Part shown: piece after piece, positions 22,072-37,162 of the stretch
How the letters are laid out: the number at the start of each line of letters is the position of its first letter
Position numbering within the stretch: position 1 is the stretch's first letter
DNA from: Lachnotalea sp.
GTDB lineage: Bacteria > Bacillota > Clostridia > Lachnospirales > Lachnospiraceae
Direction of reading: 5' to 3'
DNA: 64,000 nucleotides
Assembly: GCA_041821265.1 (NCBI GenBank)
Contig: JBGUEQ010000010.1
Coordinates: 4,217-68,216, forward strand
The notes under the pieces: generated by a model
What the model was told of the DNA's origin: nothing
Seen by the model: the letters and a program-made list of their open reading frames with translations, nothing else
Databases searched by the model: none
Translations under genes and position numbers: made by a program

Positions 22072-22083
22072 AACCAGCTCCTC

Positions 22084-22860
22084 CTATCTAAGCATTTGAA
22101 ATATCATCATAACACTACCAACTCCAACAGAAATACTGAGAGAAACTAATAAAGCATTTACCAAACGAACTGTCCCTGATAAATAATCTCCTGCAAAATA
22201 GTTTCTGACAGAAGTAGTGAATGATACGCCGGGCACCAAACATATAATTGATCCTATCATAATATGATCTAAATCTGTTCCCAATCCAATTGAATATAAA
22301 AGGATTGAAATTGTAGTTACCAAAGCAGAACCAAATGCATTTTTAAGAATTTCTGGAATTGCTACCTTTTGCATTCTAATTATGAAAGTATATAAAATAA
22401 TACCAGCAATAAACGAAACCAAGCTGTCGTTTAACGTACCACCAAGCATGTATCCAAAGGCGGCACTCCCCACTCCTGCAAATAAAATGCGAAGTAAATT
22501 GGTTTCATAGGGAATCGCTTCTACTACTTTTAATGCTTCGATAGCCTCTTCTACTGTATATTTCCCATTTATTATCTCTCTTGAAATATTGTTGACTGCT
22601 GTAACTCTTCCCAAATGCACCGGAGAAATTGGAATATGCATACTTCGCCCCGTGCGAATTCCTTCCCCTTCAATCAACATGGATGTAAAAATTCCATTTG
22701 CCATAGCAAAGACATCGAGTTCATTTATATTATAATGTCTGGCTATGATTTTCATTGTCTCTTCCACTCGATAAATCTCAGCACCATTTTCCAAAAGTAT
22801 TTTCCCTGATAATACAACTATATCAAATATCTGATTTTGGTTAGAATCTTTTTCTCTCAT
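22084..22860 (-). CDS. Threonine/serine exporter family protein, large subunit (ThrE/YjjP-like)
   Basis: 258 aa. A soluble N-terminal segment followed by about five TM helices. Paired with the 154-aa partner. Confidence 0.7.
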   Translation of the reverse strand: MREKDSNQNQIFDIVVLSGKILLENGAEIYRVEETMKIIARHYNINELDVFAMANGIFTSMLIEGEGIRTGRSMHIPISPVHLGRVTAVNNISREIINGKYTVEEAIEALKVVEAIPYETNLLRILFAGVGSAAFGYMLGGTLNDSLVSFIAGIILYTFIIRMQKVAIPEILKNAFGSALVTTISILLYSIGLGTDLDHIMIGSIICLVPGVSFTTSVRNYFAGDYLSGTVRLVNALLVSLSISVGVGSVMMIFQMLR

Positions 22861-22994
22861 TATTCTTTCTCCCGATTGAACTTACAATTCATGAAAGCAG
22901 CAATGCAAGTAGTTTCTATCTGCTAATGTTATTATTTCTTATATTATGTCATTTAAGCCTGAATTTTTCAATCAGTGCACACTACCTTTCAAAA

Positions 22995-23897
22995 CTAATC
23001 CAATAACACGTTTTCAACATGTTTCCTTATCCATTCCTTAACAAAAGCAACAAAGCTTTTTACCGTAGGTTGCAATGACCCTCTGGACGATAAACAAAAG
23101 TAGATAATACGATTCACTTCTGGCTCTAAAATCCTTCTTGTGTAACCACTATCATCATACGAATCCAAAACAAGTTTTGGCAAAATGCTTATACCACATC
23201 CACCTCGTACCATCGCTATTGTAGCCTGATCACTCAAAAATCCATTAGGTTCCATTATTTTTCCTTTCGCCTGTCGAAGTATTTTGCCAACCGCATAGCT
23301 CGTACCTTCACTCGGTATTACAAAGGTTTCTCCCTTTAACAATTGAGGTGTAATCTTCTCGTACTGACTTAACGTATGATTAATTGGCACAATTACATAA
23401 TAGGGCTCTCTAATTAGAGGCGTCTCATTTATCTTCTTATTTGATTCTACTGTAATTGCACAATCAATCACATCTTTAGCAAACCAATCCTTCATAATTT
23501 CATAATTAATTGCATCATTCATATAAATCTCTACAAGGGGATATAACTTACCAAATTCCATGATAATTTGTGGCATCCATTGCACTGCTACACTTGTAAT
23601 GACTCCAATTCTTATTTTTCCTCGATGAATATTTTCTTCACCAGCAAGAATTCGTATTTCTTCTTCTTTTAATACCAGCTCTTTCGCCAGAGGATAGATT
23701 CGTTCTCCTTCTTCCGTTAATGATACACCATTTCGTCCCCGATATAAAACTTTAATGCCCAATACTTCTTCCATTGAGGAAATCATATGGCTAGCAGCTG
23801 TCTGTGAATAATTTAACTGTGCTGCTGCCTTTGACAAATTTCCAGTTTCGACTGCACGTACAAATAAAACATATTTATTGACATCCATATTTTTCAT
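22995..23897 (-). CDS. LysR-family transcriptional regulator
   Basis: N-terminal HTH LSKAAAQLNYSQTAASHMISSMEEVLG plus a LysR substrate-binding domain. Divergent from panE. Confidence 0.9.
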   Translation of the reverse strand: MKNMDVNKYVLFVRAVETGNLSKAAAQLNYSQTAASHMISSMEEVLGIKVLYRGRNGVSLTEEGERIYPLAKELVLKEEEIRILAGEENIHRGKIRIGVITSVAVQWMPQIIMEFGKLYPLVEIYMNDAINYEIMKDWFAKDVIDCAITVESNKKINETPLIREPYYVIVPINHTLSQYEKITPQLLKGETFVIPSEGTSYAVGKILRQAKGKIMEPNGFLSDQATIAMVRGGCGISILPKLVLDSYDDSGYTRRILEPEVNRIIYFCLSSRGSLQPTVKSFVAFVKEWIRKHVENVLLD

Positions 23898-23920
23898 CCT
23901 TGTTTTTTCTATTTATTATA

Positions 23921-23937
23921 CATGAAAATCATTCATG
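23921..23937. promoter_or_regulatory. Candidate LysR box (T-N11-A) CATGAA-N5-TTCATG in the divergent intergenic region
   Basis: 6-5-6 inverted repeat containing ATGAAAATCATTCAT, between the LysR gene and panE. Confidence 0.45.
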
Positions 23938-24015
23938 ATACCATTGAATTTTTAGTATTTTATATAGGATTTTATTCATGGTACAATAAAACCAAACAAA
24001 AATAGGAGGACTAGT

Positions 24016-24936
24016 ATGAAAATAGCAATTTTGGGAGCAGGGGCTATGGGAAGCTTATACGCAAGCTATCTCATTGCTGCACATGATGTCAGTTTAATAG
24101 ATAGTTATAAACCACAAGTAGATAAAATAAATATTGATGGGTTAATAAAAATAAATCCTGATAAATCAGAAGAAACCTTTATGGCAAAAGCAGTATTAAG
24201 TGGTACGAATATTGGTATTCAGGATTTAGTTATTGTTTTTGTAAAAGGTTTACATACATATCAAGCAATGAAGGAAAATCTAACACTCATCGGTCCCAAT
24301 ACGATTGTAATGTCACTTCAAAACGGTGCAGGAAATAATAAAGATATTCGAAATTTCGTATCAAAGCGTAAAATAATCGTTGGAACCAGCAGTCATAACA
24401 GTGTTTCTATGGAACTTGGTAAATTCTATCACTCCGGATGTGGTCCAACTAATATTGGACCTGACTATCCTTGCAACGAATCAATAGCGGATGTAAAAAT
24501 AGTAGCACATACTTTAACAGATTGTGGATTGGATGTTAATGTAATTGAAAATATTCAAAAAGTCTTATGGCAAAAGCTCCTTGTTAACTGTGGAATCAAT
24601 GCACTTAGTACAGTAATGCAATGTAAGCTAGGTGAAGTTTATACCAACCCATATCTATGGAGCCTTTGTAAAAAAATTATATATGAATGCACATTGGTAG
24701 CAGAAGCAGATGGAACCTATTTTGATCGAATGGATGCAATTGAAATCGTTAAAGATGTTTGCCAAAATAATGCATCTGGGTATGCCAGTATGTATCAGGA
24801 TCGTATTAATCTACGCTTAACAGAAATCGATCGAATAAATGGTGTTGTTGCCAATCTCGGCAAGGAATATGGCATTTCTACTCCTAATAATACGATACTC
24901 GTAGAACAAATACATGCTATTGAACAAATGTATTAA
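24016..24936 (+). CDS. panE: 2-dehydropantoate 2-reductase (ApbA/PanE family)
   Basis: N-terminal Rossmann motif ILGAGAMGSLYA. 306 aa with the ApbA N- and C-domain layout. RBS AGGAGG. Confidence 0.8.
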   Translation: MKIAILGAGAMGSLYASYLIAAHDVSLIDSYKPQVDKINIDGLIKINPDKSEETFMAKAVLSGTNIGIQDLVIVFVKGLHTYQAMKENLTLIGPNTIVMSLQNGAGNNKDIRNFVSKRKIIVGTSSHNSVSMELGKFYHSGCGPTNIGPDYPCNESIADVKIVAHTLTDCGLDVNVIENIQKVLWQKLLVNCGINALSTVMQCKLGEVYTNPYLWSLCKKIIYECTLVAEADGTYFDRMDAIEIVKDVCQNNASGYASMYQDRINLRLTEIDRINGVVANLGKEYGISTPNNTILVEQIHAIEQMY

Positions 24937-25342
24937 AATATTACTAACTCAACTTGTCATTGAAAAGACCTGTGATGAGTTGGTTTTAATTGATAGAAAT
25001 GAAGATATGGCATGGGCTGAAGTCACAGCTTCAAACCATTTATTATGTTATACCGAATGGAAGATGAGAGTTTCACAAGGGGCAACGAAAGATTGCAGCG
25101 ATGCGGATATCGTCGTTCTCTCTGTTGCAGGAAGAAATGAAGAAGGTATGACAGTACTTGATATGACTGAAAGTGCCGGAGCAATCGTTAAGAATATTGT
25201 TCCTGAAATCATGAAAAGTGGTTTTGATGGCATATTTGTTGTAATAACCAATCCGGTTGATGTGATGACTTATTTAGTGCAAAAACTGTCAGGATTACCT
25301 GCAAATAGAGTGATAGGGAAAAATGTAACTTATTTTAGGTAA
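24937..25342 (+). pseudogene. Remnant of an L-lactate/malate dehydrogenase-family gene (central part of the NAD-binding domain only)
   Basis: ..DELVLIDRNEDMAWAEV..CSDADIVVLSVAG..FDGIFVVITNPVDVMTYLVQKLSGLPANRVIG resembles the LDH core. The GxGxxG start and the whole catalytic C-domain are missing. It ends 7 codons after RVIG and overlaps the gntR stop. Confidence 0.65.
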
Positions 25343-26054
25343 AAAGTACTTTCTCCAGTTCACCTTTTGTAAACACAAATTCAACTGCAACAGGCTTTTC
25401 TTGCAGGTCATGTATTTCAATACAGAATTCCAAAATCGGTGTTCCAGCAAGGACACTTAAGAGCTCACCTACTTTATCATCACATATTATCGGTTTCGAT
25501 GATATATAACTTTTTCCAATTGTAATGCCACATGCATTCATAATTTTTGAAATCGGTTGACTTCCTAAATCTTGCTCAGAATACCTGTCAAGTATAGATG
25601 AACATAGTAATTCTGGAATATAAACTTTTTCAACAGCAAAAGGCTTATCATCAACAAATTTTATGCGTTCATAAGAAATAACCTTCTGTTCCTTATTTAT
25701 ATTTAATAAATTCGCCACTTCCAATGTTGGTTCTTCCACGCTATTGTTAACATATTTATGTTCTCCAGAAATAGACATTGCTTCTATAGACAACGACGTA
25801 TGTGCCAAGTCAACTTTTCCGAATAAGTCAACAACCTTATTGTGCTTGGAAACATAAGTTCCTTTTCCTTGGACACGATATATGAGACCGTCTGTCACCA
25901 GCTCTCGTAAAGCATTCGTGACCGTAATGCGACTACATCCAAATAATTTACTAAACTCCGCCTCAGTCGGAATAGCTGCTCCTTCTTCCCATTCACCTGA
26001 TTCTATTTTTAATTTTATAAAATCTTGTATACGCATATAAATTGGAATGCCCAT
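25335..26054 (-). CDS. GntR-family (HutC/UTRA subfamily) transcriptional regulator
   Basis: Winged HTH FSKLFGCSRITVTNALRELVTDGLIYRVQGKGTYV plus a UTRA-sized C-terminal domain. Confidence 0.88.
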   Translation of the reverse strand: MGIPIYMRIQDFIKLKIESGEWEEGAAIPTEAEFSKLFGCSRITVTNALRELVTDGLIYRVQGKGTYVSKHNKVVDLFGKVDLAHTSLSIEAMSISGEHKYVNNSVEEPTLEVANLLNINKEQKVISYERIKFVDDKPFAVEKVYIPELLCSSILDRYSEQDLGSQPISKIMNACGITIGKSYISSKPIICDDKVGELLSVLAGTPILEFCIEIHDLQEKPVAVEFVFTKGELEKVLFT

Positions 26055-26087
26055 TTTTTCCCCTTTACTAAATCTGATTTATATTAC

Positions 26088-26186
26088 AGTTAACTTTAAC
26101 GTAAGTGCTTCAAACTATGATGATATAACTTAATGCTAATATCTTGATTTATTCATACATTTTTCTTGAAGCACTGATAGTTAACT
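26088..26186. promoter_or_regulatory. Nested inverted repeat upstream of gntR: AGTTAACT..AGTGCTTCAA..(52 nt)..TTGAAGCACT..AGTTAACT
   Basis: Palindromic octamers AGTTAACT at 26088-26095 and 26179-26186. 10-bp arms at 26104-26113 and 26166-26175. Confidence 0.4.
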
Positions 26187-26314
26187 CTTCTATTCCATAT
26201 AATTCATTAATTTCCTTATTAATGATTCTATCAAAATTTACACGTAATGGCAATTGCCAATATACAGTTCTAAGCTTTAATAAAGAATTTAACTTAACTC
26301 CTATTTATGATTAG

Positions 26315-26338
26315 GGTGTCAAAAGGTATTTTGACACC
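26315..26338 (-). terminator. 10-bp hairpin just downstream of the last ABC ATPase gene
   Basis: GGTGTCAAAA-GGTA-TTTTGACACC. There is no clear U-tract on the minus strand, so function is uncertain. Confidence 0.35.
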
Positions 26339-26344
26339 TGATAC

Positions 26345-27307
26345 CTACAAATTGTTGATCTCTTTTGCATAATGACAAGCAATAAAATGATTCTGGGTTA
26401 CTTCGATGAGTGGTGGCTCAGAACTAAAACATAAATTTTTTGCATAATTACATCGCGGCGCAAATCTGCATGTTGCTGGTGGTTCAATTGGTGAAGTAAT
26501 CTCCCCCATCAATTGAATACGTTCTTTGTTGGCACCGATATGAGGCTTAGGAATTGCCGAAAGCAGTGCTTTAGTATATGGATGGAACGGTTTATTGAAT
26601 AATTCTTTAGCTTCGCATTTTTCCATAATTTTCCCTAGATACATTACTGCAATATCATGAGAGATGTGCCTAACCACAGACAGGTCATGAGTAATAAAAA
26701 TATATGACAGATTACGCTCTTTTTGCAAATCCTGAATTAAATTCAGAATCTGAGCCTGAATCGAAACATCCAGAGCGGAAACCGGCTCGTCGCATACCAT
26801 CAACTTTGGATTTAACACCAATGCACGACCTATTCCGACACGCTGCCGACGCCCGCCATCTAACTCATGCGGGTAAGCGTTACCAAGTCGTGATGCTAAG
26901 CCTACCGTATCCATTATTTCATTAACTCGCTTCTGATATTCCTGTTTTGTCTGACAAACCTTATGGATAATCAGTGGCTCTCCAATGATTTTCTCCACGG
27001 TCATGCGAGGATTAATCGAGGAAAATGGATCCTGAAAAATCATCTGCATATCCTTACGTAACTCATGAAATGTTGCCTTAGAAGGCTTGGAAATATCCCT
27101 TCCATCAAAAATAATCTTACCACTGGTGGCTTCGAGAAGATTCAGGATTACACGACCCAAAGTGGATTTACCGCATCCAGATTCGCCAACAATACCCAAA
27201 GTCTTCCCCTTTTCCAAGGTAAAACTCACTCCATCCACCGCATGAAGCATACCGGACTTCGTCGGGAAATGTTTTTTTAGATCATTTACTTCTAGTAATA
27301 TACTCAT
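26345..27307 (-). CDS. Peptide/opine/nickel-type ABC transporter ATP-binding protein (OppF/DppF-like)
   Basis: Walker A GESGCGKST, a Walker B region, and a C-terminal Cys-rich oligopeptide-type extension (CRFAPRCNYAKNLC). Confidence 0.9.
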   Translation of the reverse strand: MSILLEVNDLKKHFPTKSGMLHAVDGVSFTLEKGKTLGIVGESGCGKSTLGRVILNLLEATSGKIIFDGRDISKPSKATFHELRKDMQMIFQDPFSSINPRMTVEKIIGEPLIIHKVCQTKQEYQKRVNEIMDTVGLASRLGNAYPHELDGGRRQRVGIGRALVLNPKLMVCDEPVSALDVSIQAQILNLIQDLQKERNLSYIFITHDLSVVRHISHDIAVMYLGKIMEKCEAKELFNKPFHPYTKALLSAIPKPHIGANKERIQLMGEITSPIEPPATCRFAPRCNYAKNLCFSSEPPLIEVTQNHFIACHYAKEINNL

Positions 27308-27321
27308 CTCTTTTCACTCCT

Positions 27322-28335
27322 TTATTGACCTGAGCATAAGATGCACTTTACCTTATGCCCTTTGGTAACTTCCACTACTTTAATATTAGTAGAATCGCAT
27401 TCTTTTGAGTAATAATTACAACGAGGATGAAATTTACAACCATTCGGTAAATCTGTTGGAGAAGGTCCCATACCTCTAATCGTCTCAAGTCGTTCTAAAT
27501 CTTTTTGTAAATCAGGGATGCAACTGAACAATCCCTTTGTATATGGATGCAGTGGATTATTAAAAATATCCTCAAGAGTTCCGTATTCCACAATTTCTCC
27601 TGCATACATAATAGCGACTTTATCACACACTTCTGCAACTACACCTAAATCATGCGTAATCATTATCATTGCGGTGTTAAATTCCTTCTTGAGGTCATTC
27701 ATCAAATTTAATATCTGTGCCTGAACTGTTACGTCAAGTGCAGTTGTAGACTCATCCGCAATTAGAAGTTTAGGATTACACGCTAACGACATAGCAATCA
27801 TCACCCTTTGCTTCATACCCCCTGAAAATTGATGTGGATATTCATCATAACGATCACCTTTGATTCCGACAATTTCTAGCATCTTTTTTGATTTAAGGAT
27901 AGCATTCATTTTAGATGTTTTTTCATGTAAACGCACTACTTCCATTATTTGATCACCAATGCTGATCAATGGATTCAATGAAGTCATTGGATCTTGGAAA
28001 ATCATCGTGATATCTTGTCCTCGGATTTTTCGCATTTGACGCTCTGACTTGTCCAAGAGGTTTTCTCCTTCATAATAAATTTCCCCTTTAACAATCTTAC
28101 CTGGTGGATCAGATATTAACCTAATAATACTGAGCGCTGTGGTAGTTTTTCCTGCGCCAGTTTCACCAACCAATCCTAATGTCTCTCCATGACAAATATC
28201 AAAACTTACACCATTAACCGCACGAACCACTTCATTATCGACGATGTATTTAACTTCTAGATCTCTGACTTCTAATAACTTTTGCTTTCTTTCCGAAATT
28301 ATATTATTCTTTAATGGTTCATTTTTCTTAATCAT
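27322..28335 (-). CDS. Peptide/opine/nickel-type ABC transporter ATP-binding protein (OppD/DppD-like)
   Basis: Walker A GETGAGKTT, signature FSGGMKQRV, and the C-terminal extension CKFHPRCNYYSKEC. Confidence 0.9.
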   Translation of the reverse strand: MIKKNEPLKNNIISERKQKLLEVRDLEVKYIVDNEVVRAVNGVSFDICHGETLGLVGETGAGKTTTALSIIRLISDPPGKIVKGEIYYEGENLLDKSERQMRKIRGQDITMIFQDPMTSLNPLISIGDQIMEVVRLHEKTSKMNAILKSKKMLEIVGIKGDRYDEYPHQFSGGMKQRVMIAMSLACNPKLLIADESTTALDVTVQAQILNLMNDLKKEFNTAMIMITHDLGVVAEVCDKVAIMYAGEIVEYGTLEDIFNNPLHPYTKGLFSCIPDLQKDLERLETIRGMGPSPTDLPNGCKFHPRCNYYSKECDSTNIKVVEVTKGHKVKCILCSGQ

Positions 28336-28345
28336 TTTTCATCTC

Positions 28346-29206
28346 CTACTTCAACCTTGGATCAATTGCATCACGCAAGCCATCCCCCAGCATATTAAGT
28401 GCATAAGTAGTACATATAATAGCAAGACCAGGAAAAATTGAAATATACCAATAATCTCTCAAATATGTTCTACCTTCTGAAATCATAAGACCCCATTCTG
28501 GAGTCGGTGCCTTTATCCCCAAACCAATGAAGCTCAACGACGCTGCGTATAAGATTACATTTCCAACCCCCAATGTGTATTGAACGATAAGCGGAGAAAT
28601 AGCATTCGGAAGGATATGCCGCACCAAAATACGTAAATCACTTGCTCCTAGCGAACGAGCGGCCTCTATAAACTCCTGTTCCTTTATTGTTAAAACCTGT
28701 GCTCGTGCTACTCTAGCGAAAGCCGGCACCGATGTTATAATCAGAGCAATCATCATATTTTTCATATTATTTCCTAGAGCAACAATTATGCTTATCGCCA
28801 GCATAAAATTGGGAATTCCCATGACAACATCAATAGTTCTCATTATCAAATTATCAACCTTATTAAAATATGCTGCAAAAGATCCAAGCATAATACCAAC
28901 TAGTGATGCAACTGAAATGAATCCTATACCAATGATTAGCGTATATCGACTGCCATAAAGGATACGACTAAAAATATCACGTCCAAAATTATCTGTCCCA
29001 AAAAGATGCTGAGTATTAGGAAATACAAATGTATCTTCATAGTTTTGAGCAGCATAATCATACGGGATAAGAAGTGGTGCAAGAATAGCAATAATAATAA
29101 CCAATAACATTGTGATCAAACCTATCACAGCCATACGATTACGTTTTAATCGTTTCCATATTTCGTATATAAGTGTTTTTTTTCTTTGTTTCTTACTCTT
29201 AAACAT
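28346..29206 (-). CDS. ABC transporter permease (OppC/DppC-like)
   Basis: Polytopic with an EAA-type loop (EAARSLGASDLRILVRHILPN). Start placed at ATG 29206 (MFKSKK..), overlapping the upstream permease stop. Confidence 0.88.
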   Translation of the reverse strand: MFKSKKQRKKTLIYEIWKRLKRNRMAVIGLITMLLVIIIAILAPLLIPYDYAAQNYEDTFVFPNTQHLFGTDNFGRDIFSRILYGSRYTLIIGIGFISVASLVGIMLGSFAAYFNKVDNLIMRTIDVVMGIPNFMLAISIIVALGNNMKNMMIALIITSVPAFARVARAQVLTIKEQEFIEAARSLGASDLRILVRHILPNAISPLIVQYTLGVGNVILYAASLSFIGLGIKAPTPEWGLMISEGRTYLRDYWYISIFPGLAIICTTYALNMLGDGLRDAIDPRLK

Positions 29207-30194
29207 TCTTGGACACCTTCTTTCCACCTATATCTAAAACATAAGACTTAGATCTCTTTTTTCCCTTAGAGATGTGCATAGTTTTGATACGCGGATCAAT
29301 GAAGAAATAAATGAGATCTATAACAAGATTAATAATAACACAATTTAAACCAATCCACAGCACAGCCCCCTGTATCGCCGGGTAATCCTTAAAACCAACG
29401 CTGTCAATAATGAATTTACCCAATCCAGGTAACGCAAAGACTGTTTCAACCAGTACTGAACCTGCAAGAAAAGTGCAGATTTGAATGCCGATGACGGTGA
29501 CTATCGGTACCATAGCATTACGAAATGCATGTCGAAACACAATAACAATCTCCGATTGACCTTTAGCCTTAGCTGTACGAATATAATCCTGTCGAATCAC
29601 CTCCAGCATACTAGAACGTGTCATTCGCATGATTGAAGCACTAGCCTGTAAACCCATCGTAAAGAGTGGCAATATCCAATGTAAAAAACTATAACTTCCA
29701 GTGGCAGGAAGCCATTTTAGTTTAACCGAAAAGAACAACACTAACAACATAGCTATCCAAAATGATGGTGCCGATGCACCAAATAGTGAAAAAGTTGTAG
29801 ATAATTTATCCAAGAACGAATACTGACGCACTGCGGAAATAATACCTGATAGAACACCAATAATAATTCCCAGAAAAACACTACCAAAGGTAAGTTTCAG
29901 TGTAGTAGGGTATCTATCCATAATTTCATCAATTACAGGGCGTTTACTGCGAAAAGAATCTCCCAAATCACCATGTAATAGTCCAGTAATATAATGACCC
30001 AATTGTATAAAATATGGATCATCCAATCCTAATTCATTATTTAATTGCGAAATTGCTTCAGGCGTGGCATTGTCACCTAACATTGAAATCGCCGGATTAC
30101 CTGGAGTGATATACATTAAACTAAATACGATTACAATAATTCCTAGTAATACCAGAATCATATATATTATTCTACTCAAAATATATTTTAACAT
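29199..30194 (-). CDS. ABC transporter permease (OppB/DppB-like)
   Basis: MLKYILSRIIYMILVLLG.. N-terminus and an EAA-type loop (RTAKAKGQSEIVIVFRHAFRNA). Confidence 0.88.
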   Translation of the reverse strand: MLKYILSRIIYMILVLLGIIVIVFSLMYITPGNPAISMLGDNATPEAISQLNNELGLDDPYFIQLGHYITGLLHGDLGDSFRSKRPVIDEIMDRYPTTLKLTFGSVFLGIIIGVLSGIISAVRQYSFLDKLSTTFSLFGASAPSFWIAMLLVLFFSVKLKWLPATGSYSFLHWILPLFTMGLQASASIMRMTRSSMLEVIRQDYIRTAKAKGQSEIVIVFRHAFRNAMVPIVTVIGIQICTFLAGSVLVETVFALPGLGKFIIDSVGFKDYPAIQGAVLWIGLNCVIINLVIDLIYFFIDPRIKTMHISKGKKRSKSYVLDIGGKKVSKNV

Positions 30195-30419
30195 TTGCTT
30201 ACTCCTTATATACTTAGAAATGCAGGTGTTTATAACTTACCATAGCTTACTAATGCACGAAACTATTTTAATCTGAAAATATAACCAATCACCGACTTTT
30301 CTAAAGCTTTTATTACATTCTAGGAGTATATTATTAATATCATGAAAACTTAAACTCCACAAATAATGAAAAAGCTCTATAAAAGTATGCTTGGGTCCTG
30401 TTAGCACTAGACAATTGAT

Positions 30420-31970
30420 TTATTCAAAATAAACAGATTGTAAATAATGGTTTTCATAAGTTGGCATCAAGTTAAATCCTTGAACGTCTTTTTTTATTGC
30501 AGCATTGATTTCTTTGTGCCATATCGGCAATGCTATTTTGTCTTTCATAATCATTACCTGTAACTCTTTGTATAATTCGAGACGCGCTTGCTCATCAATC
30601 GTTCCCAGTGCCTTTTGGCATTGACTCGTATATTCATCAGATTCCCAGTTAAAAATTTTATTTGTTGAGCTATCAGGCAACCAACGCATTAAAACACTTC
30701 CTGCTTCCCCGGTACTAGCAGTAAATCCAAATATAGATAACTCACTCTCACCTGCAAACAGACTGGAAATCCATGTATTCATCTCCATGAAATCAAGTTC
30801 AAGTGTGATACCAACTTCTGCTAACTGGGATTGAAACGATTGTGCAACATCCATGCGTTGCTGATTGGAATTTTCACAGGAAACATGCAAAGTCAAACCA
30901 TCTGTATACCCTGCCTCAGCAAGTAATTCCTTGGCTTTATTAACATCTCTCTTTGGAAAGTATGTACTTAGTTCTTCATTACGACCTTCAACACCAGGTG
31001 AGACAAACCCGTTTGCAATATTTCCATAATCACCATAAGCCACCTCTATTGTATTAGGTACATCAACTGCATACCAAATAGCTTCACGTACCAACGGATT
31101 ATCCAACGGCTCTTTGGCAATATTGAAACAAAGATAACTGGTATTATAGCCCATAGCGGTAACTAAGTTTATATTCGGATTATCTCTTACTCGATCCACG
31201 TCATTTGCATTAATATCATATACAATATCTGCTCCGCCAGATTCGGCTTCAATTGCACGGCTGGAACTGTCGGTAATAATCCGGAATTCTACGTTCTTTA
31301 TTTTCGGTTCATCTTTAATCCAATAGTTTTCATTAGCTGTCAATTCAACTCGGTCACCTGTATTATAACTCACAAATTTATAAGGACCTGTACCGATTGG
31401 AGCTATATTAAAATCACCATTTGATTCGTTATAAGCTTTTTCACTTATTATGCTGATCTTTGGGCTTTCCAGCATTGGCAACTGAAGTGCAGAAGGTTCT
31501 GTAGTTACTATCTGGAGCGTATAGTCGTCGATTACTTTGGAAGCAGTAAGATCTATAAAAGGAATCTGATTTTTACCTGTCATATTGTCATCAAATACTC
31601 TCTTAAATGAAAATAGTACATCGCTAGCTTTTAATTCCTCGCCGTTATGAAATAACACACCTTTTCTAATATGGAAAATAATCGTCTTATCATCTTGGTA
31701 CTCCCAGCTTTCAGCGAGGCATGGACTTAAGTTACCATCAGCATCACGTACCACTAACGTTTCGTAAATCTGACGGGTAACTTGATGATGCGCGAAGTCA
31801 TCAGTATCATTTGGATCCATCGATCCTGGGTCATTGTTAATAACTACTGTTAAAGTATCTTTTTTTTGCTCATTATTTTTTCCTTCAATATCATTTTTAT
31901 TACAACCGGAAATACTCAAAACAAAAACACCCATCATTAAAACAGCGCAAATCCGTAACATTTTTTTCAT
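30420..31970 (-). CDS. Family-5 (peptide/nickel/opine-type) ABC substrate-binding lipoprotein
   Basis: Lipobox LSISGC. About 515-aa SBP_bac_5-like architecture. Start set at ATG 31970 (MKKMLRI..) after AGAGG. Confidence 0.85.
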   Translation of the reverse strand: MKKMLRICAVLMMGVFVLSISGCNKNDIEGKNNEQKKDTLTVVINNDPGSMDPNDTDDFAHHQVTRQIYETLVVRDADGNLSPCLAESWEYQDDKTIIFHIRKGVLFHNGEELKASDVLFSFKRVFDDNMTGKNQIPFIDLTASKVIDDYTLQIVTTEPSALQLPMLESPKISIISEKAYNESNGDFNIAPIGTGPYKFVSYNTGDRVELTANENYWIKDEPKIKNVEFRIITDSSSRAIEAESGGADIVYDINANDVDRVRDNPNINLVTAMGYNTSYLCFNIAKEPLDNPLVREAIWYAVDVPNTIEVAYGDYGNIANGFVSPGVEGRNEELSTYFPKRDVNKAKELLAEAGYTDGLTLHVSCENSNQQRMDVAQSFQSQLAEVGITLELDFMEMNTWISSLFAGESELSIFGFTASTGEAGSVLMRWLPDSSTNKIFNWESDEYTSQCQKALGTIDEQARLELYKELQVMIMKDKIALPIWHKEINAAIKKDVQGFNLMPTYENHYLQSVYFE

Positions 31971-32131
31971 AATTACTACCTCTTCTTTCATTTTTTATTT
32001 TTTTAACTGTTAACATATTTAATATTGCTTAAATATTCTTCATCATTAGTTCAAAATACTTATTCCACCTGATGTGTTTAATTACATATTGCTTGTAATC
32101 TTGTTTAATTCTTAAAACTAACTTACTCAAC

Positions 32132-32587
32132 TCAGACTTCGATGATAGCTTCAATTTCAACAGGAGCGTCCATTGGTAGCTGATTTGTACCTATTGCAGT
32201 ACGGGCATGTCGGCCACTTTGTCCAAAAATATCGATTAATAGCTGAGAAGCTGCGTTGATGACTATGTGTTGCTGCTCAAATCCCACTTCACTACTGACA
32301 AATGCCTGTAACTTAACAATACTCTTCACCTTTGCCAAATCTCCCAAATAAAACTTTAATGCAGCGAGCATATTAATGATGCAAACACGAGCTGCTTCTT
32401 CTGCTTCCTCAAGCGACAAATCTTTCCCAACCTTACCAGTATATAGTAATTTCCCATCCTTAAATGGAATCTGACCTGATACATAAAGTGCATTTCCGAG
32501 CTGCCTTACTGGGATGAATAAGCTTCCTGTTTTAGACGTTTCTGGGAGGACAATTCCCATTTTTTCAATTTTCTTTTCAATATTCAC
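32132..32587 (-). CDS. RidA/YjgF-family (reactive enamine/imine deaminase family) protein, 151 aa
   Basis: YVSGQIP, ARTAIG and LPMDAPVEIEAI motifs typical of the family. Confidence 0.8.
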   Translation of the reverse strand: MNIEKKIEKMGIVLPETSKTGSLFIPVRQLGNALYVSGQIPFKDGKLLYTGKVGKDLSLEEAEEAARVCIINMLAALKFYLGDLAKVKSIVKLQAFVSSEVGFEQQHIVINAASQLLIDIFGQSGRHARTAIGTNQLPMDAPVEIEAIIEV

Positions 32588-32697
32588 ACTAATCTCCTTT
32601 TTTATATATTCATAATTTTAATTAATACCGTATAATCTGCCAGTAAACTCGCCTATTTCTCTAATTGCCACCACGCCTTGAAATACAGACTTGATTT

Positions 32698-33378
32698 TTA
32701 TTTAGTGTTCAACACTTCAATAATCTCTTCTACTCGTTCGTCGCTAATACTAAGTTTTTGAGTGGTGGCCACCCACAAAGAATCATAGTTTACCCTATCA
32801 ATAACAGATTTCAATTCTTTTACTTTTTCGTCAGAATCATTATAGCCTTTGAGAAGGAATATTCGTAGTTTTAACTTCCCCTTATACTGCTTACTGAAAG
32901 TCACAAGACTTTCTATTTGTTTCGCAGCAGTTAAGTCCATTTCTTCTAGCGGACGATGAATCTTTTTGAAATCCGCCTCATTTGTAAGGCCAATTGCCGC
33001 AACTACCTCTTCACACATACTCGCCAATCGCATATGCTCTCCAATCCCAACCAAATAGCTATTTGTAAGTATGCGAACTGGCAGACCATGATTGTGAATG
33101 CAATCGATAACTGCCCCCAAATTTGTGTTGGTTAAAACATCGCCTTGTCCATACACCTCAACCAATTCCGGATTTTCTTGGACAATTTTTTCACCGAGAT
33201 ACTTCAATGAATCCTCAACTGGACCAAAATCATGCCACTCGCCCATATACATAGTTTTTTTGTGATTGCACATTACGCAGTTAAAAATACAAGCTTTCTG
33301 CGGATTTATATCAACCCGTAGTATCTTTCCTTCATCCACTTTAATAAATTCATCCTGTTTGTAATTAAAATAATTCAT
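32698..33378 (-). CDS. Small radical SAM protein (226 aa), function unknown
   Basis: CxxxCxxC cluster motif CIFNCVMC near the N-terminus. No SPASM-type or other auxiliary Cys cluster seen. First gene of the operon. RBS AGGAGG. Confidence 0.75.
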   Translation of the reverse strand: MNYFNYKQDEFIKVDEGKILRVDINPQKACIFNCVMCNHKKTMYMGEWHDFGPVEDSLKYLGEKIVQENPELVEVYGQGDVLTNTNLGAVIDCIHNHGLPVRILTNSYLVGIGEHMRLASMCEEVVAAIGLTNEADFKKIHRPLEEMDLTAAKQIESLVTFSKQYKGKLKLRIFLLKGYNDSDEKVKELKSVIDRVNYDSLWVATTQKLSISDERVEEIIEVLNTK

Positions 33379-33435
33379 TTTTTCCTCCTGGTCTTGTGTA
33401 TTTAGTCATATCATTATCCTAACTTAAAATAAAAA

Positions 33436-33478
33436 AACAAAGGCATCCATTATATTTCTAATGAATAACGCCTTTGTT
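33436..33478 (-). terminator. Intrinsic-terminator-like hairpin in the 5' leader of the radical SAM operon (possible attenuator)
   Basis: Minus strand: AACAAAGGC..(inner CATTA/TAATG stem)..GCCTTTGTT followed by TTTTTTTATTTT (33435-33424). It lies about 40-55 nt upstream of the RBS/ATG at 33378. Confidence 0.55.
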
Positions 33479-33515
33479 ATTTTAAATTGGACCTATTAAT
33501 TTGTAATAATTAAGT

Positions 33516-33550
33516 GATTCAGATTTTGATTTGATAGAAAACTCTGAATC
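33516..33550 (-). other. 12-bp bulged hairpin in the same leader
   Basis: GATTCAGATTTT / AAAA(C)TCTGAATC with a 10-nt loop, between the repeat array and the leader terminator. Confidence 0.4.
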
Positions 33551-33577
33551 GTATCATAATTTACATCAACAAGTAGA

Positions 33578-33625
33578 TTGATATATTGATATATTGATAC
33601 GTTGATATGTTGATATGTTGATATA
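33578..33625. repeat. Tandem array of 6 x 8 bp: invariant TTGATA plus a variable dinucleotide
   Basis: Units are TTGATATA, TTGATATA, TTGATACG, TTGATATG, TTGATATG, TTGATATA. All variation falls in positions 7-8. Confidence 0.9.
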
Positions 33626-33645
33626 TCATTTATTTATTTTTTTTT

Positions 33646-33674
33646 ATAATATCATATTATAATTTGAATATCAA
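33646..33674 (-). promoter_or_regulatory. Possible sigma-A promoter of the radical SAM operon (TTGATA-17 nt-TATTAT)
   Basis: Minus strand: -35 at 33674-33669 and -10 at 33651-33646. This would put the repeat array in the transcribed leader. Confidence 0.35.
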
Positions 33675-33768
33675 GTCATAAACTCATTTTTTTATCCTTA
33701 TTGGTTACAGTTCGTTACTATTCACAGCCCTGATAAGTAATATAACGTTAGGACAAACGCAACAATTT

Positions 33769-33833
33769 AAATAGTAAATAGTAAATCTCTAGTTTTCATT
33801 AGTGTTTCAAACAATTTTGAGAGCTAGAGATTT
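33769..33833. other. 2.5 x AAATAGT tandem heptamer running into a 10-bp stem (AAATCTCTAG/CTAGAGATTT) with a 31-nt loop
   Basis: Read directly. Lies in the non-coding gap between two operons. The loop contains an inner TCAAA/TTTGA stem. Confidence 0.4.
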
Positions 33834-33916
33834 TTTGAAATATTTTAGCGGTCAACGACTAAATGCTATCGTTATTGCCCTTCACCTGAAATAAACTAAT
33901 TAACTTACACCCAAAA

Positions 33917-33947
33917 CAGAGACAGGAAATATGATTTCCTGTCTCTG
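33917..33947 (-). terminator. 14-bp perfect hairpin terminator for the upstream sugar-catabolism operon
   Basis: CAGAGACAGGAAAT-ATG-ATTTCCTGTCTCTG, followed on the minus strand by TTTTGGGTG. About 190 nt downstream of the dehydrogenase stop. Confidence 0.7.
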
Positions 33948-34140
33948 AAAAATATACTTTAACTCTACTCATCTTATCTTATTTATTCGAAAACGAGTTA
34001 TAAATAGTTTCGAACGAGTTCTTTGTATATTGTTAAAACTGATAAAATATCTACTTGATAAAACAAATACTTATAACTTAATAAGCCAGTTACTTGGAGC
34101 TTAATATAAGGTTCTTGGGACAATTCAAATGTTGACAATA

Positions 34141-35262
34141 TTATACTATCATTGCTATTTTGAGTCCATCCATTCGAATATTCGTTTCCATTGCCTCATT
34201 CAGTTCTTCTAATTTAAACTTATGTGTTATCAGCTTTTGAATCGGAAGTCCCCTCAGCTGAGCTTCTTTTAGGAATTCACAAGCCTGCATCCAGTCTTTT
34301 GATTGGTACGTCCATGAACCGGTAACCTTAATTTCTTTATTACAGATATCCAAATGTGGATTGTATGTAGCATCACCATTATTAACAAAGAAACCTAATT
34401 CACACAAAGAACCGCCCCTTCTTACGTATTGCCATAAAGTAGTTGCCGCTTTGGGTGAACCGGTACATTGAAATACCATTTCAGCTCCCAATCCTTCTGT
34501 TACTGCTTTCACTGCTGCAACCGCTTCGTCCTGTGTTTTAAAATCAGTAAAATTAATAATTTCACTTGCTCCCAGATCTTTAGCCATATTTAATCTTTTT
34601 ACGTCGCCGTCAACAGCAATAATATTTCTAACTCCCATCGTACGAACTAGGGTTAACAGTAATAAACCAATAGGCCCGCACCCCTGCACCAATACATAAG
34701 AATCATGTTTAAAGTTGAATATCTCTTTTGCTTTTTCAACTGCATGTACTATAACAGCAGATGGTTCAATTAATAACCTTAAATCAAGATCTTCCATATC
34801 GCTAACATTAAAAATAACACCACCAGCATTTATTTTAATATATTCACCAAACCAACCATTAAAAAAATGTTTTTCTCCAGGTAAGAGACCAAATATTTCT
34901 CCCTCCTCACAGAGATGTATCTTTTCCGGATGCTTTGTACACGTATTACATACACCGCAAGGTTTTAAACCGGTAACTATTTTATCTCCAATTTGAAGGG
35001 ATTTACCTGAATAATCACTTGATATGTTCTTACCAATTTTTACAATTGTCCCTGTGCCTTCATGTCCTAATTGTACAGGAATATAACCAAAAGGATCCCC
35101 TTTATATTCATGAACATCTGTACCACAGATTCCACACCCTTCCACCTTCACTAAGACTTCATCATCATTAATTTCCGGAATAGGTAACTCTTTTACTTCT
35201 AGTTTTTTTTCACTCATTAATATAGATATTTTTGCTGTTTTGGGAATTTCATAATTATTCAT
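34141..35262 (-). CDS. Zinc-dependent medium-chain dehydrogenase (sorbitol / polyol-phosphate dehydrogenase-like)
   Basis: CGICGTDVHEY, GHEGTGTIVKIG, a structural-Zn Cys cluster (CGVCNTCTKHPEKIHLC) and the Rossmann motif GCGPIG. Confidence 0.85.
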   Translation of the reverse strand: MNNYEIPKTAKISILMSEKKLEVKELPIPEINDDEVLVKVEGCGICGTDVHEYKGDPFGYIPVQLGHEGTGTIVKIGKNISSDYSGKSLQIGDKIVTGLKPCGVCNTCTKHPEKIHLCEEGEIFGLLPGEKHFFNGWFGEYIKINAGGVIFNVSDMEDLDLRLLIEPSAVIVHAVEKAKEIFNFKHDSYVLVQGCGPIGLLLLTLVRTMGVRNIIAVDGDVKRLNMAKDLGASEIINFTDFKTQDEAVAAVKAVTEGLGAEMVFQCTGSPKAATTLWQYVRRGGSLCELGFFVNNGDATYNPHLDICNKEIKVTGSWTYQSKDWMQACEFLKEAQLRGLPIQKLITHKFKLEELNEAMETNIRMDGLKIAMIV

Positions 35263-35275
35263 TTTTTATCCTCCT

Positions 35276-36127
35276 TTATGAAAATATTTTCAATGCACTT
35301 TTTACATTTTCTTTCATAGCATTACTTCCCCAAAGTACGATATCATGATAATAAACCACATTATCCGACTTTTCTTTTACTTTTGAAACCACTGCTTCTC
35401 CGCCTGCTTTCGCCATATATGTATAGTAGTTGATTTTTCTAACACCTTTATTAATAGCTATTTTATAATCTTCTTCACTAACACCTGACCCTCCATGCAT
35501 TACAAGAGGAATGTTCACTTTTTCTTTTACTCTATCTAATACACTCATATCTAACTTTGGCTTTTTTAGATATATGCCATGTGCCGTTCCAAAAGAGCAA
35601 GCCAAAGCATCAATCCCGGTTTCCTCCACAAATCGTTTTGCGTCATCCGGGTCCGTATATACTTCCTTTGGTGCCTCTTCATTATCTTCATGTCCGGCTC
35701 CTAATTCACGTTTTCCCAGTACACCAATTTCTGCTTCCACAGATGCTCCAGTTTTTTTAGCTATTTCCACAGCGATACAGGTATTTGCTACATTTTCACC
35801 ATATGAAAGTGTAGAACCATCGTACATAATGGAAGTGAATCCCAAATTCACAGCCGCCTGTAAATAACTTAAGGTTACACCATGGTCCAAGTGTACACAG
35901 ACCGGCACCTTGGCTTTCTTTGCCATTTCTACCATGATTGGTCCAATTACTGATAATGGCATAAGATCTTCGTGCACTTCTGCATGCATAATAATAACTG
36001 GTACGTTCAACTCTTCAGCAGCCCCTATTACTGACATAACCGATTCTAAATTTGGTGTATTAAAGGATCCAACTGCACTTTTTTTTGCTTCCGCAATTTG
36101 TAATATTTCTTTTAATGTAACTAACAT
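35276..36127 (-). CDS. Class II ketose-bisphosphate aldolase (FBA/tagatose-bisphosphate aldolase family)
   Basis: HLDHG and MHGGSG motifs. 283 aa with a TIM-barrel class II aldolase layout. Confidence 0.85.
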   Translation of the reverse strand: MLVTLKEILQIAEAKKSAVGSFNTPNLESVMSVIGAAEELNVPVIIMHAEVHEDLMPLSVIGPIMVEMAKKAKVPVCVHLDHGVTLSYLQAAVNLGFTSIMYDGSTLSYGENVANTCIAVEIAKKTGASVEAEIGVLGKRELGAGHEDNEEAPKEVYTDPDDAKRFVEETGIDALACSFGTAHGIYLKKPKLDMSVLDRVKEKVNIPLVMHGGSGVSEEDYKIAINKGVRKINYYTYMAKAGGEAVVSKVKEKSDNVVYYHDIVLWGSNAMKENVKSALKIFS

Positions 36128-36142
36128 ATTTCTACCTCCATT

Positions 36143-37150
36143 TTATTTATTTTTTATTATATTCCATGCATCCAAACCTTGAAGCATTTCTACGGAAACG
36201 GAATAGCAAACCGTTTCTTCTGGTTTAATAAATTTTAACCTGCCATCTTCACGCATCTTATGTCTTCCGTCGGGATGACAGTTTCCGGGTTCTAGTCCCA
36301 ATACATAATCCCGTTCACCCATCATCTTCCATTCCACAAAATAATCCAAAGAATTCTTATCGAAACGTATTACCAGTCCTTTATCTATTTCCGGATTATA
36401 AATGGCGGCTATACTTTCGTTATCAAACTCATGGAAATAGCACTGTTCTTCAAAGCCTAGAGTTGGCGGACATATTTTGTTCCATTCTTTTATTCCATCC
36501 TGAGCATGCGAATTACGAGCAATTACCCGGTCAGAAGGAATATGGACGATCGATTGTTCCGAAAGAAACGGATATCCAATGTTCATATGGTACAATATCA
36601 TTAAAGGCATAGTTTCATTGCCTTGATTTGTAATGGAGTCCCGAATTACTATTTTATTTTCGCTTTTTGAACACTGGATGTTTCTATTCATTACAAGTTT
36701 TCTTGCGAAAATACCAGAATCATTTATTTTAGCATTTATTTGAATCATATCTTCATCCATATCCCAATAAATATGTTCTGCCGGTGTATTGCCAATTGTT
36801 CCATGAAGAGGAAGTTCTTCGCCCATATCCATGCATGGAGAACCCACAGCCGTCAAACCACAGGTTGTTAAAAACCCGGCTGTAAAAGACTTTAAAAATC
36901 CAACACCTTTTTCTTCATAATAGGACGGTGCTACGTACCCATTGGATGAAAAATAACCGCAATTGTCACCTTTAAAACTTAACCTTGAAATATCTGCGCA
37001 ACGGTCCGCTGATACAGTGAACTCCAATCCCAAACCATTTTTAACTTGTAGAAGGCGCATACCATCGCCTTTTCCTCCGATTAAGCGATGCTCTTCTACA
37101 CCGCAGATTTGTGATTCATGACCAATATATTTATAATGTTTCATTCTCAT
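36143..37150 (-). CDS. Aldose-1-epimerase-like (DUF4432-type, galactose-mutarotase fold) protein
   Basis: 335 aa. Assigned from memory of DUF4432 proteins (..GLEFTVSADRCADISRLSFKG.., ..LPLHGTIGNTPAE..). Motif-level only. Confidence 0.55.
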   Translation of the reverse strand: MRMKHYKYIGHESQICGVEEHRLIGGKGDGMRLLQVKNGLGLEFTVSADRCADISRLSFKGDNCGYFSSNGYVAPSYYEEKGVGFLKSFTAGFLTTCGLTAVGSPCMDMGEELPLHGTIGNTPAEHIYWDMDEDMIQINAKINDSGIFARKLVMNRNIQCSKSENKIVIRDSITNQGNETMPLMILYHMNIGYPFLSEQSIVHIPSDRVIARNSHAQDGIKEWNKICPPTLGFEEQCYFHEFDNESIAAIYNPEIDKGLVIRFDKNSLDYFVEWKMMGERDYVLGLEPGNCHPDGRHKMREDGRLKFIKPEETVCYSVSVEMLQGLDAWNIIKNK

Positions 37151-37162
37151 CCTCCGTTCAGG

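Follow-up and report, generated by a model that had tools for sequence, protein, structure and literature searches.

Clostridia carry gdx-ctdA operons under a guanidine-I riboswitch (Hauth et al. 2023, PMC10018355), ctdA itself being reported as riboswitch-controlled (PMC10018355; PMC11477304). The CtdA homologue of C. perfringens deacylates canavanyl-tRNA(Arg) and prevents canavanylation of tRNA(Arg); bacterial cleavage of canavanine to guanidine and homoserine was reported in 1955, and its enzyme is still unknown (PMC10018355). Here we describe a gene cassette that is related to these operons through one of its genes. It lies in a 64,000-nucleotide stretch of Lachnotalea sp. (GenBank assembly GCA_041821265.1, contig JBGUEQ010000010.1, positions 4,217 to 68,216), referred to below as the window and numbered from its first letter, and encodes a radical S-adenosylmethionine (SAM) enzyme, a Rid-family protein, an ATP-binding cassette (ABC) importer with its substrate-binding protein (SBP), and a GntR/HutC-type regulator. 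Like the gdx-ctdA operons, in which a 229-residue radical SAM gene follows ctdA, the window has a radical SAM gene with the same motif, at 35–40% identity. Unlike them, the window and its close subfamily are without the riboswitch, ctdA and gdx, and have a GntR/HutC repressor, an importer and a Rid gene instead.

Other described systems share parts of this composition. Pyruvate formate-lyase activating enzyme (PFL-AE, 3c8f) and archaeal TYW1 (2yx0) have, like the window protein, a small and open partial barrel of the (beta/alpha)6 type and an N-terminal CX3CX2C motif, although the protein is only 14–15% identical to them and has no glycyl radical enzyme (GRE) partner, no second cluster and no Lys-pyruvate site. 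DesII, viperin and BlsE are single-cluster radical SAM enzymes that remove or rearrange N or O substituents beside the radical carbon. They appear among the fold matches and as weak hidden Markov model (HMM) matches of the window protein and would, by analogy, be a mechanistic precedent for the step proposed below; they differ in being larger, in using nucleotide-linked substrates and in HMM scores far below the cut-offs. We know of no Rid partner for any of the three. ThiH, HydG and NosL are radical SAM amino-acid lyases that yield an imine (dehydroglycine), which is then hydrolysed, but they are full barrels of 370–480 residues with C-terminal domains, and the window protein gave no sequence match to them in NCBIfam. 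Routes that pair a flavin adenine dinucleotide (FAD)-dependent D-amino-acid or D-hydroxyproline dehydrogenase with a Rid protein or an imine deaminase follow, from established knowledge, the same logic of an optional proline-racemase-family epimerase, an imine maker, Rid-type hydrolysis and an oxo acid. Examples are Pseudomonas aeruginosa DauA with Rid2, and the route of HypE, D-hydroxyproline dehydrogenase and pyrroline-4-hydroxy-2-carboxylate (Pyr4H2C) deaminase. The window, in contrast, has no flavoenzyme, and the radical SAM enzyme would form the imine in strict anaerobes. Finally, the Opp, Dpp, Gsi and Nik importers and the opine importers of AgaA and AccA have the same five-component architecture as the window ABC system.

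We propose that the window cassette serves the substrate-inducible uptake and breakdown of a small nitrogenous compound by way of an imine or enamine intermediate that the Rid protein hydrolyses, a reading to which we give about an even chance.

A radical SAM protein in a conserved neighbourhood

The eight co-directional minus-strand genes at 25335-33378, read as one unit in an earlier note on this DNA, were confirmed in strand and coordinates by open reading frame (ORF) reading (Table 1), and none of the eight proteins reaches an NCBIfam equivalog cut-off. The note had described the first gene product as a minimal radical SAM enzyme of 226 residues without an auxiliary cluster domain, and this description holds. 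The protein has only five cysteines, three in the CX3CX2C motif and two outside it (C92 and C121), and therefore no auxiliary-cluster domain; C30, C34 and C37 are invariant across 38 homologues. An AlphaFold2 model made with these homologues (predicted local distance difference test, pLDDT, 92; predicted template modelling score, pTM, 0.89) contains six beta-alpha units, and Foldseek matched it to 96 radical SAM chains of the PDB at E<=1e-3. The nearest folds were PFL-AE (template modelling, TM, score 0.72) and then TYW1 (TM 0.66), but the sequence models of neither family were reached: the activase (TIGR02493, TIGR02494), QueE and TYW1 (TIGR03972) models gave no NCBIfam match at E<=0.01. The best NCBIfam scores were for a tungsten-cofactor maturase (23 against a cut-off of 380 bits), DesII (18.4 against 450) and viperin (17.8 against 180), and no chain was matched in a PDB sequence search.

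Several identities were rejected on these grounds. The protein resembles TYW1 or a COG0731 'wyosine synthetase' in fold alone, having no TIGR03972 match and only five cysteines. For a GRE activase, the models are unmet and no GRE occurs in any of the 13 neighbourhoods mapped. DesII and viperin score far below their equivalog cut-offs, and QueE is absent from the matches. NCBIfam and Pfam scans and the PDB sequence search gave no other named family, and the protein is not an orthologue of a housekeeping enzyme, a possibility that the earlier note had raised. As modelled, the window protein is a minimal, open, PFL-AE-like partial-barrel radical SAM enzyme with no assigned family, and this family is without a function in the libraries and papers searched.

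The nearest folds belong to enzymes with a protein (PFL-AE) or a tRNA (TYW1) substrate, relatives carry the JGI label 'wyosine synthetase' (COG0731), and the sister subfamily described below adjoins a tRNA deacylase. The radical SAM protein might accordingly modify or activate a macromolecule, either tRNA or protein, its position in the cassette reflecting co-regulation and not a shared small-molecule pathway. We regard this as very improbable, since the TYW1 and activase models are unmet, auxiliary-cluster cysteines are lacking, no GRE or other conserved protein partner was found, and tight operon coupling to an importer, a repressor and a Rid protein in 12 loci, some of them mobile, is typical of small-molecule use.

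This coupling was read from called genes and their Pfam matches, together with a tblastn map of representative proteins over all loci. Besides the window, 12 independent loci from gut metagenomes or metagenome-assembled genomes (MAGs) carry radical SAM homologues at 53–66% identity. An SSF symporter, with PutP and PanF as best named matches, follows the radical SAM gene (one copy or two tandem paralogues) in all 12. A GntR/UTRA gene 41–55% identical to that of the window is present in ten, a Rid gene in eight and ThrE/ThrE_2 in seven; a contig edge ends most of the loci in which a partner gene is missing. Where ThrE and ThrE_2 stand directly upstream of the radical SAM gene (L006, L014, L110/L112), they are 37–41% identical to the window's pair. 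The Opp/Dpp-type ABC importer was found in the window alone, in the slot between the enzymes and GntR that is held by SSF in the relatives. Further members of related operons are a Cys/Cys proline-racemase-family gene (480 bits, below the model cut-off of 556), a CD0519/CD1768-family membrane protein, an SDR, EamA transporters and, in several operons, a four-subunit 2-oxoacid:ferredoxin oxidoreductase (POR).

The linkage of radical SAM, Rid, GntR and ThrE genes is thus not due to chance. The recurring connection with a Rid protein, a transporter and a HutC-type regulator bears out the earlier view of an uncharacterised uptake and processing cassette. The proposed tie between the radical SAM, Rid and importer genes survives in part: Rid, GntR and ThrE recur across the 12 independent loci, Rid in the eight counted above, whereas the SBP and its ABC system are confined to the window and SSF takes their place elsewhere. 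The note's statement that no described pathway has such a composition agrees with our literature searches, which returned no paper on radical SAM plus Rid catabolism.

The Rid protein of the window finds its PDB matches in 3d01 (1.5e-38), PA0814 (9bk9) and ACIAD3089 (9bkb). It keeps the conserved Arg (GRHARTAIG), aligned with that of 3d01 and PA0814. Its earlier label of 'RidA family' is correct as to the Rid family, the PF14588 and PF01042 models both being reached, but not as to RidA proper, for which it scores 29.6 against a cut-off of 106 bits (TIGR00004); its sequence places it in a PF14588-type, non-RidA subfamily. In related loci the same slot is filled either by proteins of 150–156 residues that are 59–70% identical to the window's (L006, L012, L014, L108, L110) or, in the L001, L004 and L009 groups, by a 119-residue RidA-like protein with the active-site Arg, so that the catalytic Arg is kept in both the RidA-like and the PF14588-type proteins. 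The known activity of the family and the conserved Arg suggest that the window Rid protein is an imine/enamine hydrolase. Since two Rid subfamilies and two importer families have replaced one another non-orthologously in fixed slots, both uptake and imine/enamine hydrolysis appear to be selected functions, which argues for the reading preferred here.

The sister subfamily and the guanidine-I riboswitch

A word-indexed search of 5.8 billion proteins returned 56 relatives of the radical SAM protein, 38 at 54–65% identity in addition to the window's own and 17 at 36–39%. A profile search gave roughly 2,700 relatives at E<=1e-3, with 37 representatives at E<=1e-30 and, beneath them, a layer of proteins of about 310 residues, which are likewise unnamed and whose gene contexts are uninformative. 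Scanning the GTDB species genomes yielded 221 relatives, only six loci of which fall in the close branch, from Clostridiales MAGs, a Dysosmobacter of the rabbit gut, a Pyramidobacter of the deer omasum and a Eubacteriaceae MAG; the remainder form a sister branch in Clostridium and its allies. The two branches are split at 100/100 support in a maximum-likelihood tree.

The sister subfamily is a grouping made in the present work and not a curated family. Its 229-residue proteins (loci L005 and L020-L092, for example L029 9114-10690 and L028 9844-10687) have the same cluster motif as the window protein and many invariant residues in common with it. At least 1,530 clusters belong to the branch, with 82–89% identity across genera among the 119 closest matches listed, and they include proteins of Clostridioides difficile, C. 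perfringens, C. botulinum and C. sporogenes. Where names are given, almost all are 'radical SAM protein' or 'wyosine synthetase'. The window protein lies outside this group, at 35–40% identity to members that are over 80% identical to one another, and has neither the aptamer nor ctdA/gdx beside it.

A guanidine-I aptamer was found by Rfam in 11 of 11 sister loci tested. With a covariance model built from these 11 loci, it was located upstream of the radical SAM gene and on the same strand in 63 of 74 loci; in at least 11 it directly precedes this gene with none between. A B3_4 protein of 235 residues is encoded directly upstream in 45 of 73 loci and matches CtdA, the canavanyl-tRNA(Arg) deacylase (PDB 9f7e, E 1.3e-27), and SugE/Gdx is present in 27 loci. 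The sister radical SAM protein is an unreported member of the guanidine-I riboswitch regulon of Clostridia. The gene goes unmentioned in PMC10018355 and PMC11477304, in a 2025 CtdA study (PMC12449066) and in a 2025 guanidine review (PMC12623156), and our literature searches found no paper that joins canavanine or the guanidine riboswitch with a radical SAM enzyme, or radical SAM with B3/4. From this context we infer that the sister protein is a candidate for the canavanine-cleaving, guanidine-forming enzyme.

Extended to the whole family, this candidate function would make the radical SAM proteins lyases of gamma-heteroatom 2-aminobutyrates such as L-canavanine, canaline and O-ureidohomoserine. 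Abstraction of H at C-gamma and N-O scission would give aspartate semialdehyde or homoserine and guanidine; alternatively, a radical gamma-elimination would give 2-aminocrotonate, which Rid would convert to 2-oxobutyrate and ammonia. The window cassette, with importer and Rid, would then be nutritional and the sister gdx-ctdA-rSAM operons (rSAM, radical SAM) would serve detoxification, with ThrE or EamA exporting homoserine. Members of the ThrE and EamA families include threonine, serine and homoserine exporters, and rabbit and deer gut MAGs are among the sources of the close subfamily. The sister loci speak for the idea through the riboswitch (63/74), ctdA (45/73) and gdx (27 loci) and through the absence of an intervening gene in at least 11 loci, as does the lack of an enzyme for the cleavage reported in 1955 (PMC10018355) and of any paper found that links canavanine to a radical SAM enzyme. 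On the other side, no guanidine-I riboswitch was detected in the window, the 13 close-subfamily loci, the window's genome or five genomes carrying the close branch, and the window's genome has neither Gdx nor a close CtdA. Moreover, 35–40% identity permits a different substrate, and the sister protein may itself act on tRNA(Arg), guanidine or something else. We consider the idea unlikely for the family as a whole.

Because aptamer, Gdx and close CtdA are all missing, the guanidine link is not directly transferable to the window. With its repressor, importer, Rid protein and exporters, the close branch is geared to substrate use rather than to stress response. What the sister branch would add, by analogy, is a substrate class, since there a protein of equal length, at 35–40% identity, is associated with a basic amino-acid analogue in its free form. 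Elsewhere in the window's own genome, a free-standing ORF of 222–236 residues (contig C18, 22388-23056; L113) has 20% identity to the Clostridium CtdA-type B3_4 protein (E 3.7e-6); it adjoins a MocR-type regulator and is not linked to the cassette. Neither the ThrE/ThrE_2 pair nor the connection of the sister subfamily with the guanidine-I riboswitch and ctdA regulon figured in the earlier note.

Importer, regulation and distribution

The importer genes make up a PepT-type (Opp/Dpp) set of an SBP_bac_5 protein, two BPD_transp_1 permeases and two oligo_HPY ATPases. In the PDB, the SBP is best matched by 5u4o, a Bacillus protein without ligand, by GsiB, HbpA and DppA, and by two opine binders, AgaA and AccA. 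In DppA, Asp408 binds the N-terminus of the peptide and Arg355 its C-terminus. When the SBP is aligned to 1dpp with HMMER, a Ser stands in place of Asp408, and Arg355 lies in an insertion that has no counterpart in the SBP. Lacking equivalents of both residues, the protein is not a canonical dipeptide binder. A homologue at 64% identity belongs to an ABC operon with an enoyl-CoA hydratase, an acyl-CoA synthetase, an MR_MLE enzyme and PutA, and homologues at 59% and 56% to operons with glycerate kinase and enolase, one of them also with an enoyl-CoA hydratase (L123) and the other with an MR_MLE enzyme (L124). These are the nearest homologues with a readable context (L122 79-12935, L123 7991-17309 and L124 8449-18356; the glycerate kinase is of the MOFRL type and the enolase a paralogue). 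The system thus differs from Opp, Dpp, Gsi and Nik in reaching no equivalog cut-off, in the two DppA residues and in the company of its homologues, which suggests that the SBP clade carries small organic or imino acids, or derivatives of these, rather than peptides. The peptide label among the substrates first proposed is therefore doubtful, as the relatives stand beside PutA, MR_MLE, glycerate kinase and enolase and not beside peptidases. Naming a ligand from the homologues was rejected, given that their contexts are heterogeneous (PutA/MR_MLE against glycerate kinase/enolase) and argue only against oligopeptides.

Whether the importer belongs functionally with its neighbours was also considered. 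The window is the only locus with an ABC system, the best matches of the system are generic (NikA/Opp5A, GsiB, DppA) and all far below cut-offs, and gaps of 140 nt between the Rid and SBP genes and of 225 nt between the SBP and first permease genes could hold promoters. An ordinary peptide, glutathione or nickel importer that came by chance to lie between the radical SAM-Rid pair and GntR would account for this, and the radical SAM, Rid and GntR genes alone would then form the functional unit. It is, in our judgement, a highly doubtful explanation: the ABC genes fill exactly the SSF slot of the relatives between the enzymes and GntR, no SSF of their type or remnant of one was found in the window or its genome, a terminator scan of the unit gave no strong terminator-like site between the radical SAM gene and the last ATPase gene, and the dipeptide-binding residues are missing from the SBP.

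The SBP matches bear on the chemistry as well. AgaA and AccA are opine binders, SBP relatives adjoin sugar-acid enzymes, and the window regulator has weak NCBIfam matches to fructosamine/amino-sugar-type models. HutC-type regulators include regulators of fructosamine and amino-sugar use. These points would suit an oxygen-independent C-N lyase, in which the radical SAM enzyme oxidises an N-substituted amino acid (opine, Amadori compound or N-carboxyalkyl amino acid) to a Schiff base that Rid splits into a carbonyl compound and a free amino acid exportable by ThrE or EamA; the Rid and exporter content fits such an amine release. The conserved companions of the radical SAM gene do not, however, include a kinase, a deglycase, an aldolase or any sugar-handling enzyme, its usual partner is an SSF protein best matched by PutP and PanF, and there is no auxiliary cluster for the second electron, although DesII manages without one. 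We think this variant improbable.

The regulatory features ahead of the radical SAM gene are given in Table 1. The ATATCAAY array is presumed, from its sequence and position, to be the binding site of the cassette's GntR/HutC repressor. In 11 related loci, TTGACA/TATGATA promoters are followed downstream by a double unit, ATGTCAAC-ATATCAA, which, where ThrE is present, lies ahead of that gene. Such sites are found at L001 9070-9095, L009 8290-8310 and L105 596-620, and at L019 3030-3050 and 3098-3120, L017 9795-9850 and others. The putative operator is common to at least 11 loci across phyla (Bacillota, Synergistota), and orthologous GntR repressors would share one operator. The window GntR protein scores 101 bits against the HutC equivalog cut-off of 220. 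In the 4.7-Mb genome, double units at up to one mismatch occur only in the radical SAM leader; a whole-genome operator search for extra regulon members gave none at this threshold, and the regulon in the window's genome appears to consist of the radical SAM operon alone. As no further enzymes are co-regulated through the site, the enzymes needed after uptake are probably the radical SAM and Rid proteins alone. The leader hairpin with its U-run may be an attenuator or conditional terminator; neither its length nor its position is conserved in other loci. Riboswitch control of the window operon was rejected: Rfam gave no match at E<=0.1 over 20000-38000, and the custom guanidine-I model found none in the window or the close-subfamily loci.

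Table 1 Features of the radical SAM cassette and associated genes in the window
Feature	Position	Strand	Remarks
Promoter-like site, TTGATA-17-TATTAT (with TG)	33646-33674	-	10/12 match; precedes radical SAM gene
Putative operator array, six tandem 8-bp ATATCAAY units	33578-33624	-	Just downstream of promoter; read from sequence
Imperfect hairpin CAAAGGC...GCCTTTG and U-run	33431-33476	-	Leader, about 55 nt before radical SAM start; downstream of operator
Radical SAM protein, 226 aa	32698-33378	-	CIFNCVMC, C30-x3-C34-x2-C37; PF04055 32 bits (cut-off 29.5)
Rid-family protein, 151 aa	32132-32587	-	PF14588 78 bits; PF01042 53 bits
Family-5 SBP lipoprotein, 523 aa	30420-31991	-	SBP_bac_5; signal peptide; lipobox ISGC
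ABC permease, OppB/DppB/GsiC-like	29199-30194	-	BPD_transp_1
ABC permease, OppC/GsiD-like	28346-29227	-	BPD_transp_1 and OppC_N
ABC ATPase, OppD-like	27322-28335	-	ABC_tran and oligo_HPY
ABC ATPase, OppF/DppF-like	26345-27307	-	ABC_tran and oligo_HPY
GntR/HutC-subfamily regulator, 239 aa	25335-26054	-	PF00392 (GntR winged helix-turn-helix) 57.5 bits; PF07702 (UTRA) 53.7 bits
Split ThrE (258 aa) and ThrE_2 (154 aa) exporter-family pair	21607-22860	-	Pfam

The sugar operon upstream of the cassette has its own terminator at 33947-33917. The 760-bp gap upstream of the radical SAM gene contains no ORF and no tblastn trace of a lost second radical SAM or B3_4 gene. By comparison with related loci, the ThrE/ThrE_2 pair is an ancestral member of the module. 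It is separated from the rest by a LysR gene, a PanE-like gene and a lactate/malate dehydrogenase (LDH/MDH)-family remnant of 142 residues (24914-25342, plus strand), which overlaps both the PanE-like gene and the convergent gntR at their 3' ends; these intervening genes suggest that an insertion or rearrangement took place later.

The cassette is mobile, and its distribution is sporadic. No close homologue of the radical SAM protein was found in 200 genera of the window's family or in a same-genus genome, and in L110-L112 the cassette is cargo of an integrative conjugative element (ICE) with TraG, DnaB, an excisionase and a sigma factor. In these loci (L110 1-16898, L111, L112) the gene order ThrE-ThrE_2-rSAM-rSAM-SSF-GntR-Rid lies inside the ICE-like element, which encodes a TraG/type IV secretion coupling protein, DnaB, ClpP, a sigma-70 r4 protein and an HTH_17 excisionase; a sequence like the 3' half of a tRNA is nearby. 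An empty-site comparison with the same-genus genome was abandoned, the two being too divergent (about 70% nucleotide identity, in the ATPase genes only).

The radical SAM gene is tandemly duplicated in most relatives (L001, L006, L009, L014, L015, L105, L108, L110). The 'upstream' and 'downstream' copies form two well-supported paralogue clades in the tree. The single-copy protein of the window branches deep in the close branch, at the base of which the tree does not resolve the order of this protein, that of L012 and one further sequence. Pyramidobacter has one radical SAM gene of each paralogue clade; the two lie on different contigs, and an SSF gene accompanies each of them (L017, L018). 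Judging from this separation, the paralogues may have distinct substrates rather than form an obligate heterodimer.

Proposed reaction sequence and its implications

In the reading we prefer, substrate-inducible breakdown through an imine or enamine, what is imported is most likely a metabolite of the amino- or imino-acid type, or an analogue, supplied by the gut or the plant diet. It could be a proline-like imino acid, a canavanine-like antimetabolite or an N-substituted amino acid. As long as substrate is absent, the GntR/HutC repressor would sit on the ATATCAAY array downstream of the promoter, and the ligand would release it, so that uptake is induced. The Opp/Dpp-family ABC system would import the compound, as the SSF symporter would in the relatives. 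The radical SAM enzyme, with its one [4Fe-4S] cluster, would abstract H next to nitrogen, at C-alpha or at a heteroatom-bearing carbon, giving a 2-imino acid, a cyclic imine or an enamine. Hydrolysis of the intermediate by Rid, in keeping with the activity of its family and the conserved Arg, would release a 2-oxo acid together with ammonia or an amine. The oxo acid would pass to central metabolism (several related loci have POR), and ThrE/ThrE_2, or EamA in other loci, would export the product or excess substrate.

Three observations suggest the imine or enamine intermediate. Two unrelated Rid subfamilies occupy one slot, the catalytic Arg is kept, and the proline-racemase and POR genes of related operons recall the order of steps in aerobes, where an epimerase and a flavin dehydrogenase are followed by imine hydrolysis and an oxo acid results. 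The proline-racemase gene, the PutP-like SSF, POR and the SBP homologue that stands with PutA would all fit a route from an imino acid to an oxo acid.

Several considerations weigh on the other side. Every chemical step is deduced from the protein families and their gene neighbours, and the same holds for the deamination, epimerisation or C-N cleavage suggested in the earlier note. Spending one SAM per turnover is expensive for a catabolic catalyst unless SAM is regenerated, and minimal open-barrel radical SAM enzymes, such as PFL-AE, typically work on macromolecules; the sister subfamily adjoins a tRNA-editing enzyme. Rid is missing from L019, which at 7.4 kb is reasonably long, and from the majority of sister loci, and the proline-racemase, Gate and POR genes occur in just 4–5 of the 12 related loci, none of them being present in the window. 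Its genome also holds a HypD glycyl-radical/Prd route for hydroxyproline and proline, in which the GRE and Prd labels derive from ORF sizes and N-termini. Hydroxyproline is accordingly weakened as the window substrate, since a HypD-type GRE, its activase, ProC, a proline racemase and a Prd cluster lie elsewhere in the genome. These genes are on contig C8 at about 28600-42300 (a 790-residue GRE, a 304-residue activase, a ProC-like gene, a proline racemase and Prd-like genes); the racemase and the activase were matched by tblastn and blastp, respectively, and the GRE, ProC-like and Prd-like genes were read from ORF sizes and N-termini. The C8 racemase is 53% identical to the racemases that adjoin radical SAM homologues elsewhere.

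As a broader and distinctly tentative proposal, rather unlikely on present evidence, the 226–229-residue radical SAM proteins could be a new family of oxygen-independent destroyers of amino-acid analogues, the widespread sister branch being the enzyme that forms guanidine from the plant toxin canavanine in anaerobes. The window's subfamily would be a nutritional version that combines import, radical cleavage, Rid hydrolysis and export of the product and that mobile elements carry between gut bacteria.

The ligand of the SBP or of GntR would name the substrate class of the radical SAM family directly. The sister operons offer a concrete candidate for the enzyme of the canavanine-to-guanidine cleavage and bear on the source of the guanidine that riboswitches sense in gut anaerobes; if the sister protein makes guanidine from canavanine, the activation of ctdA and gdx by guanidine riboswitches would have an explanation. 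In the window, a member of the same family would be the central enzyme of a mobile, repressor-controlled module for the use of a nutrient or toxin. If the reading proposed for the window is true, its pairing of a radical SAM enzyme with a Rid deaminase would give strict anaerobes a new counterpart to the flavin oxidases that work in air.

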